DNA of 64,000 nucleotides from a virus (IMGVR_UViG_2974767555_000001:11688-75687), one strand, 5' to 3'; positions 21,589 through 57,401 are shown, counted from the first letter of the stretch. Made by a program: numbers and translations. The notes: generated by a model not told the origin, from the letters alone.

Positions 21589-21651
21589 GGAGCTGGTCTG
21601 GTACCTGCTCCGGTGGTCGGGAGTCTAGCAACCTATACCGACAGCGCGCCA
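21589..21651 (-). promoter_or_regulatory. Cassette promoter/operator/hairpin (leftward copy)
   Basis: Minus strand: TGGCGC-N18-TAGACT; palindrome at 21623-21638; hairpin GGAGC-A-GGT-ACCAG-ACC-A-GCTCC. Confidence 0.75.
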
Positions 21652-21709
21652 CGGATCGGGCCGATTACCCGGGATGACCTGGACCGACAGACTGAATCGG
21701 CCCAGGTAC

Positions 21710-21771
21710 TTGCGGCCCGTTTGTCTAGAGAGCTATAACTGAATCACCGGGGCCGGTGACCGACCAGCCCC
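21710..21771 (+). promoter_or_regulatory. Cassette promoter/operator/hairpin
   Basis: TTGCGG-N18-TATAAC; GTCTAG-AGAG-CTATAA at 21723-21738; hairpin at 21749-21771. Confidence 0.85.
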
Positions 21772-21794
21772 CACCCCTACGAGAGGAACCAGAA

Positions 21795-22778
21795 ATGCCC
21801 GCCACCGTCGAGTTCACCGCGATCACCCCCGATGGCCAGAAGGTCACCCGCAACAGCAAGACCAAGCAGTACACCCACGCCGTCGCCACCCTGCGCGTCC
21901 GCGACAACGACACCGAGGCCACCTGGGGGATCGCCAGCTTCCACGAGGGTGTGACCAACGCCTTCAACGCTGGCCGGTCGTACAAGAACGCCAAGAGCTA
22001 CCGGGTGGTCGAGGTCGAGGTGACCGCCGTCAAGGGCACCCCGTCGCCCGAGCACACGTTCGCCATCGAGCACAAGGAGCGCCTGGCCCAGGTCGCCGAG
22101 GACGCCCCGGTCGAGGTCGAGGACGCCCCCGTCGAGGACGCCCCGGTCGCCGAGGTCGAGGTCGCCGAGGTCGAGGTCGCCGACCAGGATGACACCACCG
22201 AGGTCGCCGAGGTGGTCGAGGTCGCCGACACCCCCCAGGAGCGCCGGAACCGGAAAGCGCGTGAGCGCCGCGCCGCCAAGCGCGCCGCTGCCGCCAGCGA
22301 GAAGCAGGCCCAGGACGACGCCATCGCCAAGAGCGAGTGCCTGACCGTGACCGAGGTCGAGGAAGCACCGAAGGCCAAGGGTCGCAAGGCACCCCGGGCC
22401 AAGGTCACCCCGCTGTCGGAGATCGGCCTGACCGGGAGCGCCATCCTGGACGCTGCCGTCGCCGCCGCCGCCGACGAGATCGCCGAGGACGCCCCGGTCG
22501 AGGTCGCCGAGGTCGAGGCCCAGGTGGTCGAGGTCGAGGTGACCGAGGACAGCGCCGACACCCAGATCACCCAGGTCCTGGAGGTCACCGCCGACGACAT
22601 CGCCGCCGCCAAGGCCGGGATGGTCAAGGGTGAGAAGTGCCCCGGGTACGGGATGGTGGTGCCCGGTGACGGTGCCAGCAAGGGCAACGGGTCGCACAAG
22701 CGGGTGGAGTGCCCGGTCTGCGGTCACAGCGTCAAGCGCTACGACAAGTCGGGCAAGCTGGGTTCGCACCGGGTCTGA
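21795..22778 (+). CDS. Acidic low-complexity protein with C-terminal Zn-binding module
   Basis: RBS GAGAGGA; VEVAEVEV/EDAP repeats; ends CPGYG...CPVCGHSVKRY...KLGSHRV. Confidence 0.85.
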   Translation: MPATVEFTAITPDGQKVTRNSKTKQYTHAVATLRVRDNDTEATWGIASFHEGVTNAFNAGRSYKNAKSYRVVEVEVTAVKGTPSPEHTFAIEHKERLAQVAEDAPVEVEDAPVEDAPVAEVEVAEVEVADQDDTTEVAEVVEVADTPQERRNRKARERRAAKRAAAASEKQAQDDAIAKSECLTVTEVEEAPKAKGRKAPRAKVTPLSEIGLTGSAILDAAVAAAADEIAEDAPVEVAEVEAQVVEVEVTEDSADTQITQVLEVTADDIAAAKAGMVKGEKCPGYGMVVPGDGASKGNGSHKRVECPVCGHSVKRYDKSGKLGSHRV

Positions 22779-22799
22779 GGCCCGCGCTGCCGGATCGGC

Positions 22800-22832
22800 A
22801 GGGGGCCGGTGGGGTAACACCACCGGCCCCCT
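22800..22832 (+). terminator. Terminator-like hairpin
   Basis: AGGGGGCCGGTGG-GGTAACA-CCACCGGCCCCCT after the stop; no strong U-tract. Confidence 0.6.
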
Positions 22833-22876
22833 CGTCGTCTCGGCAGGCGCGCATGCAGGCAGTTTCGCGCAGGTGG

Positions 22877-22938
22877 TTGCGGGTGGGCCGTCTAGTTTGC
22901 TATAACTGAGTCACCGGGGCAGGTACCAGACCAGCCCC
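22877..22938 (+). promoter_or_regulatory. Cassette promoter/operator/hairpin
   Basis: TTGCGG-N18-TATAAC; GTCTAG-TTTG-CTATAA at 22890-22905; hairpin at 22916-22938. Confidence 0.85.
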
Positions 22939-22956
22939 CAGACCCCAGGAGGGGAC

Positions 22957-23205
22957 ATGACCACCACCGCCACCATCACCAGCAAGCGCGTCAAGGCCGG
23001 GGTCTACCGGGTCGCCGCCGCCGATGGTCGGGCCTGGATGGTCTTCAGCTACCAGCTGGACCCCACCGTGGGGTACGGGTCGGGCACGGTCTGGCAGGTC
23101 AACGGTGACCCCAACGCCGAGACCTACACCCCGGACCCCGGGTTCGACCCGGCGTACACCAAGGCCCAAGCGCTGGAGTGGTTGACCGCGCTGGTCAACG
23201 CCTGA
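22957..23205 (+). CDS. Hypothetical protein
   Basis: RBS GGAGGGG; strong C/G-ending codon bias. Confidence 0.8.
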   Translation: MTTTATITSKRVKAGVYRVAAADGRAWMVFSYQLDPTVGYGSGTVWQVNGDPNAETYTPDPGFDPAYTKAQALEWLTALVNA

Positions 23206-23251
23206 CCCCCCACCCCCCACCTACCCACCACCACCCGAAAGGACCCCGACC

Positions 23252-55847: not shown

Positions 55848-55894
55848 ACCACAACCCGCCACCAGCCACACCAACCACCAAGGAGCGCAACGAC

Positions 55895-56206
55895 ATGACC
55901 ACCACCACCGCCACGTACGAGCAGAAGAAACTGGCCAGCGCGCTGGCCCACGCTGTCGCCGACTGGGACGAGCAGACCACCCCCAAGGCCACCCAGATCG
56001 CCAAGGCCAAGGCTGACGGTATCGCCATCGGTGCCCACGCGATGGGGTACGGGATGACCCCCAACGCCGTGTTCCTCGACGTGATGGATTGGGTGCGCGC
56101 CAACCCCCGCCCCGCTGCCGGTGGCGCATACCCCGCCGAGCGGAAAGCGTGGCAGGCCAAGGTCGATGCCGAGGTCGCCGACATCATCGCCAAGCTGCAC
56201 TACTGA
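55895..56206 (+). CDS. Hypothetical protein
   Basis: RBS AAGGAG. Confidence 0.75.
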   Translation: MTTTTATYEQKKLASALAHAVADWDEQTTPKATQIAKAKADGIAIGAHAMGYGMTPNAVFLDVMDWVRANPRPAAGGAYPAERKAWQAKVDAEVADIIAKLHY

Positions 56207-56211
56207 CCGCT

Positions 56212-56231
56212 GGGGCCGGATCACCGGCCCC
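56212..56231 (+). repeat. Cassette-family hairpin (perfect-stem variant)
   Basis: GGGGCCGG-ATCA-CCGGCCCC. Confidence 0.6.
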
Positions 56232-56271
56232 CCAACACATTCCCACCACCACCACCCAGGAGACCATCACC

Positions 56272-56499
56272 ATGCACGCCGACGAACTGTTGTCAGACCC
56301 CGCCGCCCCCGCTGTTGACGCCACCGGCACGGTCTGGGTGTACCGGCCCGCCATCGACGGGTGGAAGTACATCACCGACGAGGGCCTGTCGTACGACTGG
56401 TTCAAACTCCCACCTGACCACTACGGCCCGTTCACCCCGCTTGACGAGGGAGCGGCCCGCATGATCACCCGCGCGGTCGCCGCGCTGGCCACCACCTGA
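56272..56499 (+). CDS. Hypothetical protein (YGPFT motif)
   Basis: RBS AGGAG; VDATGTVWVY...GW...HYGPFT. Confidence 0.7.
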   Translation: MHADELLSDPAAPAVDATGTVWVYRPAIDGWKYITDEGLSYDWFKLPPDHYGPFTPLDEGAARMITRAVAALATT

Positions 56500-56534
56500 C
56501 AACCCAACTACAGACCGACCTGGAGGAGGAACCG

Positions 56535-56711
56535 ATGACCGACACCCCGATCACCCGCGTGCTTGACGCTGAGCCGGTCGTGGACACGTGCGACGTGTGC
56601 CACCAGCGCGCCGACACGTACACCGTGACCCGGCCCAGCGACGGCAAGAAGTCGCGCCGCTGCCATACCCACACGGGCGACCAGTTCGACCGCGCTGCCG
56701 TATGGCGGTAG
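56535..56711 (+). CDS. Small Zn-binding peptide (58 aa; not in the ORF track)
   Basis: RBS GGAGGAGG; CDVC...CHTH. Confidence 0.6.
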   Translation: MTDTPITRVLDAEPVVDTCDVCHQRADTYTVTRPSDGKKSRRCHTHTGDQFDRAAVWR

Positions 56712-56764
56712 CGCGCAACACAATTCACCACACCCAACACCAAATCGACTGAAGGACAACGACA

Positions 56765-57271
56765 ATGACCACTGACAACGAGATCAAGGGCACGTTCGAC
56801 GCCCCGGGCACCACCATCTGGGCCACCATCCGGGCCGACCAGCTGGTCCCCGGCGACAACATGGCGTTGATCACCGAGTGGGGCCGCATGGTGGTCGAAG
56901 AGGCCTACCTGGTGACCCGCCGCAACCGGGTCCTGGTCATCGGGGAGCTGACCGACCATCACGCAGCAGGCCAGCGCGACTACGTGAGCGTGAAAGCTGA
57001 TGACCAGGTGGGGATCTTCTACACCATCACCGAGGGCAACGGGTGGAGTCGAGAAGCACCGGGGGAGTGGACCTACAGCGACGCATGGGGGGTGCTGGCC
57101 CTGGTCACCGGGGGCACCACCGGGACCAGTTGGGAGTACCGGGTGGTCGACCCCGACCACCCGGGCGGCAACCCCCTGGCGACCGGTCTGCACGCGCGCC
57201 TGCCGGAAGCGCAGCGCGCGGTGATGTCAGCGCTGGAGCAGCTGAAGGCGAACCGGCAGGACCGTTCCTGA
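56765..57271 (+). CDS. Hypothetical protein
   Basis: RBS AAGGA; IRADQLVPGD (Hint/SH3-like start). Confidence 0.7.
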   Translation: MTTDNEIKGTFDAPGTTIWATIRADQLVPGDNMALITEWGRMVVEEAYLVTRRNRVLVIGELTDHHAAGQRDYVSVKADDQVGIFYTITEGNGWSREAPGEWTYSDAWGVLALVTGGTTGTSWEYRVVDPDHPGGNPLATGLHARLPEAQRAVMSALEQLKANRQDRS

Positions 57272-57336
57272 CCGTTGACCGGCCCGACACCCCCGACCCA
57301 GTTTGGGCCGGGGGGTAAACCGGTTTGGGCAGGTGG

Positions 57337-57401
57337 TTGCGGGTTGTCGGTATAGTGCCCTATACTCGAACTATCACCGGGGCAGGTACAAGACCAGCCC
57401 C
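57337..57401 (+). promoter_or_regulatory. Cassette promoter/operator/hairpin
   Basis: TTGCGG-N18-TATACT; perfect palindrome GTATAG-TGCC-CTATAC at 57350-57365; hairpin at 57379-57401. Confidence 0.85.

Follow-up and report, generated by a model that had tools for sequence, protein, structure and literature searches.

The question raised by this locus is what a short, imperfect hairpin does that recurs ahead of small genes in a mycobacteriophage genome, and whether it acts as RNA or as DNA. The DNA analysed (IMGVR_UViG_2974767555_000001:11688-75687; 64,000 nt, referred to as the window, positions counted from its first base) comprises bases 11688-75687 of a 75,687-bp virus record with 65% G+C, and the hairpin (HP1) follows the pattern GGGGC-N-GGT-loop-ACC-N-GCCCC. 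In its strict form this pattern was found 6 times on the plus strand against 0.00 expected (100 shuffles). A covariance model was then seeded with 12 copies and the window was searched with filters off, which returned 13 members scoring 34-47 bits, the next best match being at 20 bits. Twelve members are on the plus strand and one is on the minus strand (21589), the latter recovered by the model though it lay outside the seed. HP1 is a real, sharply defined and narrowly distributed family. The pattern sites listed in an earlier reading of the same DNA (the original prediction) are all real copies, except that 25049, 52501 and 55537 lack the outermost G-C pair, as does 54787 (outer stem GGGC/GCCC), and that a copy at 24326 had not been listed. 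As set out below, HP1 probably works at the RNA level, as part of a leader that is tied to the start codon and not to the promoter.

On sequence comparison the source of the window is a Cluster Y mycobacteriophage of 75.7 kb. Nadezda aligns with it at 96% coverage and 95.7% identity, Bipper at 67% coverage and ~75% identity; Nadezda was assigned to Cluster Y in a 2025 paper (PMC12699233), in contrast to its place under Marvinvirus at NCBI, and Bipper and Cracklewink belong to Bippervirus. By terminase (~67% at the amino acid level) the nearest outgroups are the Mycobacterium abscessus prophages prophiT37-1 and prophiGD43A-5. Nadezda carries 12 copies of HP1, Bipper 10 and Cracklewink 10 (32 beyond the window), giving a total of 45 in four Cluster Y phages. 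Per the Nadezda annotation, the copies lie in two blocks of small hypothetical genes, the first between the lysis genes and the integrase and the second near the right end of the non-structural genes. No HP1 was detected in Marvin, and neither HP1 nor any repeated hairpin family in prophiT37-1 and prophiGD43A-5. Exact-pattern scans of IMG/VR and GTDB genomes yielded, besides Bipper, single chance matches only, and a scan with the promoter core yielded Bipper plus three unrelated single matches. The HP1 pattern was not enriched in 101 Mycobacteriaceae genomes and the covariance model found nothing in two genomes; k-mer counts and short-word self-BLAST lacked the sensitivity to pick up the cassette even in its own genome. 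When the window was searched with Rfam, the threshold was reached by two tRNAs only and HP1 matched no family; at E values up to 1, the segment 21400-26500 gave chance-level matches only. In the searchable literature the element is apparently without a description.

The copies share a common unit, in the order SigA-like promoter, HP1, short C/A-rich spacer, second hairpin (HP2) and start codon. Each of the 45 copies points in the direction of the gene that follows it, and in the 13 window copies the start codon is found 18-27 nt past HP1, with or without a promoter. A promoter-like unit (TTGCGG, 17-18 nt, TATAAC-like) is present ahead of 10 of the 13, with HP1 beginning 9-12 nt past the -10. 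A T(C/A)TAG-N4-CTA(G/T)A palindrome is positioned over the -10 with fixed spacing at 10 genes; on the plus strand the palindrome-bearing promoters are at 21710-21741, 22877-22908, 25009-25040 and 26315-26345 in the first block and at 51469-51500, 52462-52493, 55495-55526, 57337-57368 and 58793-58824 in the second. Similar palindromes (ACGTATAG-N4-CTATACGT) are found in prophiT37-1 near 72187 and 72643 and in prophiGD43A-5 near 73197 and 73653, which looks like an operator type shared with the outgroup prophages; because of the fixed spacing and these outgroup palindromes, the promoter palindrome is a better operator candidate than HP1. HP2 is a CCC-N3-5-GGG mini-hairpin with the Shine-Dalgarno (SD) sequence in its loop and 3' arm. 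It is predicted in most leaders, weak in a few, and kept in form, not in sequence (one Bipper copy has the arms swapped, GGGG...CCCC); its pattern was present at 7/11 cassette genes vs 4/114 other Nadezda genes (Fisher p = 1.2e-6). The leaders fold as HP1 plus HP2 with z between -1.0 and -4.1.

Promoter and leader can be separated. The copies at 23957, 53024 and 54787 are promoterless and stand after stop codons, with HP2 and spacing retained. Conversely, the promoter at 58793-58831 (plus strand, -10 TATACA) has neither HP1 nor HP2: the ATG at 58829 starts at the 7th nt past the -10 and opens a 61-aa gene homologous to Nad_00114, whose transcript is predicted to be leaderless. From this copy, which sets the start site 7 nt past the -10, we infer the positions of the transcription start sites, so that HP1 would begin at about +3 to +6. 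Since three copies are promoterless and one promoter is leaderless without the hairpin, HP1 is tied to the translated leader and not to the promoter, which upholds the earlier claim of promoter independence. The promoterless copies then named were right for 23957 and 54787; 55823 and 56212 belong to another hairpin class (see below), and 53024 is a true promoterless copy instead. The orthologous cassettes at 55440-55600 and at Nadezda 66570-66730 are identical in HP1, HP2 and gene and have different promoter variants; the Nadezda promoter resembles the one at 51469, and its upstream sequence resembles that upstream of Bipper 71369. Promoter modules thus appear to be exchanged by recombination up to the 5' edge of HP1, where the junction is found. 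Genes led by a cassette show some of the lowest conservation between the two lineages, and the large indels between the window phage and Nadezda show no breaks at cassettes.

For analysis of covariation, the 45 copies (31 distinct) from the four phages were aligned. The internal mismatch is A.A in 40/45, C.A in 3/45 and replaced by a C-G pair in 2/45; it is never A-U, although A-U would add ~5 kcal/mol of stability. No variation was seen at twelve stem positions, and 43/45 copies have A as the mismatch partner, while loops and flanks vary freely. Loops are 4, 5 or 6 nt long and come in 13 distinct sequences, all purine-first and G-last, and the stability of HP1 is -9 to -15 kcal/mol. Two of the nine pairs covary and five are invariant. 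One change converts G-C to A-U (GGAGC/GCTCC at 21589 on the minus strand vs GGGGC/GCCCC in the Nadezda orthologue 33305, also minus), the other U-A to C-G (GGC/GCC; window copies 24326, 53024 and 54787, four loci across the alignment). The compensatory changes originally seen at 21589, 53024 and 54787 are therefore real, with 24326 as a further GGC/GCC copy. The four GGC/GCC loci have an ATCAG-type loop in common and no canonical promoter, and because they share this loop the change was probably one ancestral event, which leaves probably about two independent compensatory events. Both are transition pairs, passable via wobble intermediates; a disrupting change, a broken loop-closing pair, was found in one copy (Nadezda 62160). 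The covariation score was above all 500 shuffles, which is weak evidence as the copies are related. A covariance model applied across phages, part of the check proposed at the outset, thus widened the family to 45 copies but produced only about two independent covariation events, too few to give significance with these copies, and covariation is too thin as proof of structure.

An RNA-level role is nevertheless rather probable overall. It is favoured because the spacer between the arms varies, the loops are asymmetric, the arms differ at the mismatch and the paired changes keep complementarity, and because HP1 is linked to the leader and start codon and not to the promoter. Of the earlier claim of selection on RNA structure, the RNA-level, strand-specific reading therefore stands as the better one, but not the covariation (2/9 pairs) as its proof. 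Our preferred proposal, to which we give a probability of roughly 0.4, is that HP1 is a cis-acting cap or insulator of the RNA leader. On this view, HP1 is transcribed as the 5' stem-loop of a standard mRNA leader with two hairpins, which Cluster Y phages put ahead of 10-13 accessory genes of poor conservation; in most cases the leader is joined to a conserved SigA-type promoter with the operator-like palindrome over the -10. Held down in stability by the kept A.A mismatch, it would form a moderately stable cap, leave just ~2-5 unpaired nt at the 5' end and fix the fold of the translation-initiation region regardless of the upstream sequence; a homology anchor for cassette recombination might arise as a by-product.

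Several points weigh against this proposal. The geometry (HP1 at about +3 to +6) fits the 5' RNase shield that had been suggested, but the precedent in the host, Mycobacterium smegmatis, is negative for the stability half: deletion of two 5' stem-loops did not shorten reporter half-life, and 5'-end structure was uncorrelated with half-life transcriptome-wide (PMC11728522). The start sites, and the presence of HP1 in the RNA, are placed by inference. With about two covariation events and all copies being paralogues, shared features could be inherited and not selected. A purely structural role leaves unexplained the kept mismatch, where A-U never occurs, as well as the identical stem consensus in lineages that are ~75% identical over 67% of the genome. 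The kept mismatch, modest stability and fixed start distance seem to point more to control of translation initiation, by an insulator or a factor-binding site.

If HP1 binds a factor, this could be a phage-encoded protein that reads the stem with the A.A mismatch and the R...G loop, the accessory-gene set being jointly repressed or activated in translation, as by RegA or coat protein elsewhere. We consider such an RNA operator unlikely, even though it would agree well with the 12 invariant stem positions and the mismatch partner A (43/45) next to free loops and flanks, with the identical consensus in two diverged lineages, and with the end of HP1 lying 18-27 nt ahead of the start codon, at the edge of the 30S binding region. 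As the motif is unenriched in the 101 host-family genomes, a protein reading it would have to come from the phage; the search for candidates gave none, ten conserved Cluster-Y-specific proteins being without a Pfam family, and selection for structure alone would also keep the stem invariant over short evolutionary distances. The Nadezda and Bipper gene that carries the annotation 'RNaseE' was tried as the HP1 reader and rejected, as it looks like a helix-turn-helix (HTH) protein; this gene (4283-4711, left of the window and directly upstream of the terminase) gives weak matches to HTH_23 and sigma-70 region 4, and its product is more suggestive of a small DNA-binding protein akin to a terminase small subunit. 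Improbable, too, is a double-stranded DNA operator past the start site, bound for example by the HTH_31 protein encoded at 24512-25027, with the promoterless copies as 'stoperator'-like roadblocks. In its favour, the arms of the HP1 inverted repeat are conserved around a variable centre, the position of HP1 (about +3 to +25) is one used by many repressors, the promoterless intergenic copies recall Cluster A stoperators, an XRE-type HTH gene lies within the cassette region, and for the analogous ESAS elements of Cluster K DNA-binding proteins were favoured by the authors (PMC3203893, PMC11373665). However, the spacing of the half-sites is not constant, being one bp shorter or longer at 4 loci (4, 5 or 6 nt between them); two conserved positions set one half-site consistently apart from the other (A/T at the mismatch, A/C beside the loop), and the paired changes retain complementarity; moreover, the -10 palindrome with its fixed spacing already looks like the cassette operator, and a leaderless promoter of the same type is without HP1, whose distance is kept to the start codon, not to the promoter. 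A GC(A/T)GGT that recurs just upstream of the -35, and is similar to the HP1 arms, was considered as a third half-site and dropped, GGCWGGT occurring 67 times in the genome, mostly within genes.

That HP1 is a terminator or attenuator shielding the cassettes from upstream transcription is very unlikely. The promoter-early stem-loops (PeSL; GGGG...CCCC) of T4-type phages, on which this explanation is modelled, terminate in E. coli and can adjoin the -10 downstream (PMC2839356), and HP1 is located between genes; but it has no U-tract and C/A-rich tails, no copy appeared in the own-strand terminator scan, and it would attenuate transcripts of its own promoter. Its -9 to -15 kcal/mol also compares with -26 to -30 kcal/mol for hairpins after the stops of cassette genes. 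Two hairpins of this kind, at 55823-55847 (plus strand; 7 nt past the stop of the cassette gene 55580-55816) and 56212-56233 (plus strand; 6 nt past the stop codon of the open reading frame (ORF) 55895-56206), had been taken for fully paired HP1 variants. They score 20.3 and 18.6 bits against the HP1 model and were rejected as members, since they form a different, perfectly paired GC hairpin, GGGGCCGG(G)ATCACCGGCCCC (~-26 kcal/mol), placed 6-7 nt past a stop codon and 40-48 nt ahead of the next ATG; the fully paired variant at 23957 (39.6 bits) was correctly assigned. A further non-member, a terminator-like 12-bp perfect hairpin at 22801-22832 (plus strand; ~-30 kcal/mol), is found 23 nt past the stop of the cassette-2 gene and 45 nt ahead of the next cassette promoter. 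The hairpin at 55823 looks like a terminator or 3' stabiliser, and we take all three for probable 3' termini of cassette transcripts rather than variants of the 5' hairpin. Because of these much stronger separate hairpins at the 3' ends of cassette genes, termination is provided for elsewhere than HP1. The lambda nut boxB and HK022 put sites are antitermination RNAs that occur once per long operon, upstream of terminators, boxB having a GNRA-like loop and an adjacent boxA. HP1 shares with them that it is a small promoter-proximal hairpin of phage early transcripts, but differs in occurring once per short gene, in its RNNNG loops and in the terminator-like hairpins that end the units. Neither a GNRA-like pentaloop nor a boxA nor a once-per-operon arrangement was seen among the 13 copies with 13 distinct RNNNG loops, and the antitermination element that had been suggested is unlikely. 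Finally, HP1 could have no role in expression itself and persist within a linker that is duplicated, recombines and carries accessory genes around. The genes next to the cassettes are those of lowest conservation, the promoter swap is joined at the 5' edge of HP1, and the phage encodes RecE/RecT-like proteins; yet loops and flanks have diverged near saturation while stems, mismatch and spacing are kept, which argues for selection on the hairpin, and the large differences from Nadezda do not break at cassettes. We give this linker little chance.

HP1 cassettes are an apparently undescribed variant of the repeated promoter/stem-loop gene cassettes of other phages, the nearest known kinds being T4-type PeSL cassettes and the Cluster K ESAS/SAS elements. 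Stabilising 5'-terminal stem-loops of the E. coli ompA type need neither a fixed start-codon distance nor a conserved sequence. HP1 has both, and comparable 5' hairpins in M. smegmatis gave a reporter no added stability (PMC11728522). PeSL cassettes were described in the T4-type phages RB49 and phi1 (Arbiol et al. 2010; PMC2839356); like the units described here, they are ~100-bp repeats that combine a host-type promoter and a G-run/C-run stem-loop with an SD sequence and start codon, they precede small, poorly conserved genes in plastic genome regions, and they show signs of recombining with one another, to which the promoter swap at the HP1 edge corresponds. In the window, too, promoter (predicted from sequence), stem-loop and SD are repeated between small variable genes. 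The promoter swap fits PeSL-like shuffling; indels that do not break at cassettes do not. PeSL stem-loops, which have been shown to act as terminators, in most cases overlap the promoter or stand ahead of it, whereas HP1 is placed past the predicted start site. HP1 further differs by its kept internal mismatch, the lack of a U-tract, the SD-bearing second hairpin behind it and a distance to the start codon that is fixed even in promoterless copies; host and phage lineage also differ. In Cluster K, the ESAS element is a repeat of ~46 bp that contains a conserved SigA-like promoter and an inverted repeat and stands ahead of some of the non-structural genes, in their orientation; SAS (GGGATAGGAGCCC, 13 bp) is a short conserved element 3-9 bp ahead of the start codon (PMC3203893; PMC11373665). 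Both share with HP1 the host and the two genome regions (the right end, and the stretch from the lysis genes to the integrase), and SAS can be drawn as GGG-loop(SD)-CCC, in the manner of HP2. When the window was searched for the SAS consensus GGGATAGGAGCCC with up to 2 mismatches, 2 matches were obtained (2 mismatches each; shuffle mean 1.78), none at cassettes. There is no sequence similarity to ESAS, whose repeat is within the promoter and whose departures from consensus do not support RNA pairing, whereas HP1 follows the promoter and departs from its consensus by compensatory changes. In a broader version of the RNA operator, a phage-encoded post-transcriptional regulator would switch ~13 genes through HP1, the twin-hairpin leader would be the logic behind SAS, and the Cluster K SAS (GGG-ATAGGAG-CCC) would display its SD in the loop by the same device; this version is decidedly unlikely. 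Morons of lambdoid phages (PMC2839356) likewise consist of one accessory gene each, inserted among other genes with a promoter of its own ahead and a hairpin behind, but are without common flanking sequence, whereas promoter and leader form one repeated family here.

The repeats at gene starts of mycobacteriophages (SAS/ESAS) have lacked an explanation since 2011. In the HP1 cassettes the parts are separable into a palindrome-bearing promoter, a transcribed hairpin with compensatory changes and a kept mismatch, and an SD-bearing mini-hairpin, and natural controls exist in the promoterless copies and in the promoter without leader at 58793. Whether such leaders serve stability, translation insulation or factor binding can thus be tested directly in M. 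smegmatis, and they could yield a compact expression module for mycobacterial genetics; if it is true that HP1 only marks recombining cassettes, the PeSL gene-shuffling model would extend to actinobacteriophages.

The individual copies are as follows (scores against the covariance model). Cassette 1 (21568-21655, minus strand, 43.0 bits) comprises HP1 at 21589-21611 (GGAGC.A.GGT/ACC.A.GCTCC), HP2 at 21575-21586 and the ATG at 21570, behind a promoter-like minus-strand unit TGGCGC-18-TAGACT with a TATAG-N4-CTAGA palindrome; it leads an 82-aa gene (21322-21570) whose Nadezda homologue is annotated 'toxin' and for which Pfam gave no match. Directly left of this first cassette pair are genes for tRNA-Arg(TCT) and tRNA-Met(CAT) at 21029-21181. 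The remaining copies are on the plus strand. Cassette 2 (21710-21797, 41.1 bits) has -35 TTGCGG at 21710, -10 TATAAC at 21734-21739, HP1 at 21749-21771 with a C.A mismatch, a weak HP2 at 21776-21786 and the ATG at 21795; its gene (21795-22778) contains imperfect tandem repeats of 15-24 nt at 22090-22183 and 22466-22512, which result in a repetitive acidic protein segment. Cassette 3 (22877-22959, 47.3 bits) consists of a promoter at 22877-22906, HP1 at 22916-22938, HP2 at 22943-22954 (CCCC-AGGA-GGGG) and the ATG at 22957, and its leader has a minimum free energy of -20.7 kcal/mol (z -2.5). The promoterless copy at 23957-24008 (39.6 bits; HP1 23957-23979, HP2 23984-23998, ATG 24006) is fully paired, with C-G in place of the mismatch, and begins 13 nt past the TGA of the ORF 23252-23944. 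It is followed by a cassette with a diverged promoter (24286-24378, 34.1 bits; HP1 24326-24348 of the GGC/GCC type with a 6-nt loop, HP2 24354-24363, GTG 24376), in which the promoter TTGTGT-17-TACGGT at 24286-24314 is kept in Bipper as TTGTGG-18-TACGGT. The last two cassettes of this block are at 25009-25092 (41.1 bits; promoter 25009-25038 with -10 TACCCT, HP1 25049-25069, HP2 25073-25085, ATG 25090) and 26315-26398 (42.0 bits; promoter 26315-26343, HP1 26353-26375, HP2 26379-26389, ATG 26396). Directly left of the latter is the mobile element MPME1 (25821-26276; 98.9-99.6% identity to copies of many Cluster F and G phages), a segment missing in Nadezda. The 400-aa cassette-led gene at 26396-27598 is present in the window phage and Bipper, and Nadezda has a 207-aa C-terminal homologue at 37615-38238 without the cassette. 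Inverted GGCAGGTCAC-type repeats at 28640-28690 and 29030-29050, within and next to the leftward ORF of the integrase, are candidates for regulatory or arm-type sites and apparently unrelated to HP1.

The second block begins with cassettes at 51469-51555 (37.2 bits; promoter 51469-51498, HP1 51511-51532 with a C.A mismatch and a 4-nt loop, HP2 ~51538-51548, ATG 51553) and 52462-52549 (39.5 bits; promoter 52462-52491, HP1 52501-52522, weak HP2 52527-52536, ATG 52547). Two promoterless copies follow, at 53024-53073 (39.6 bits; HP1 53024-53046 of the GGC/GCC type, 31 nt past a TGA, HP2 53050-53063 with arms ACCU/AGGU, GTG 53071) and at 54787-54833 (41.0 bits; HP1 54787-54808 of the GGC/GCC type, 14 nt past a TAA, HP2 54811-54823, ATG 54831). 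The cassette at 55495-55582 (41.8 bits; promoter 55495-55524, HP1 55537-55558, HP2 55564-55573, ATG 55580) has a perfect TCTAG-N4-CTAGA palindrome and -10 TAGACC, and the one at 57337-57424 (43.4 bits; promoter 57337-57366, HP1 57379-57401, HP2 57405-57417, ATG 57422) a perfect TATAG-N4-CTATA palindrome, -10 TATACT and a leader z of -3.0.

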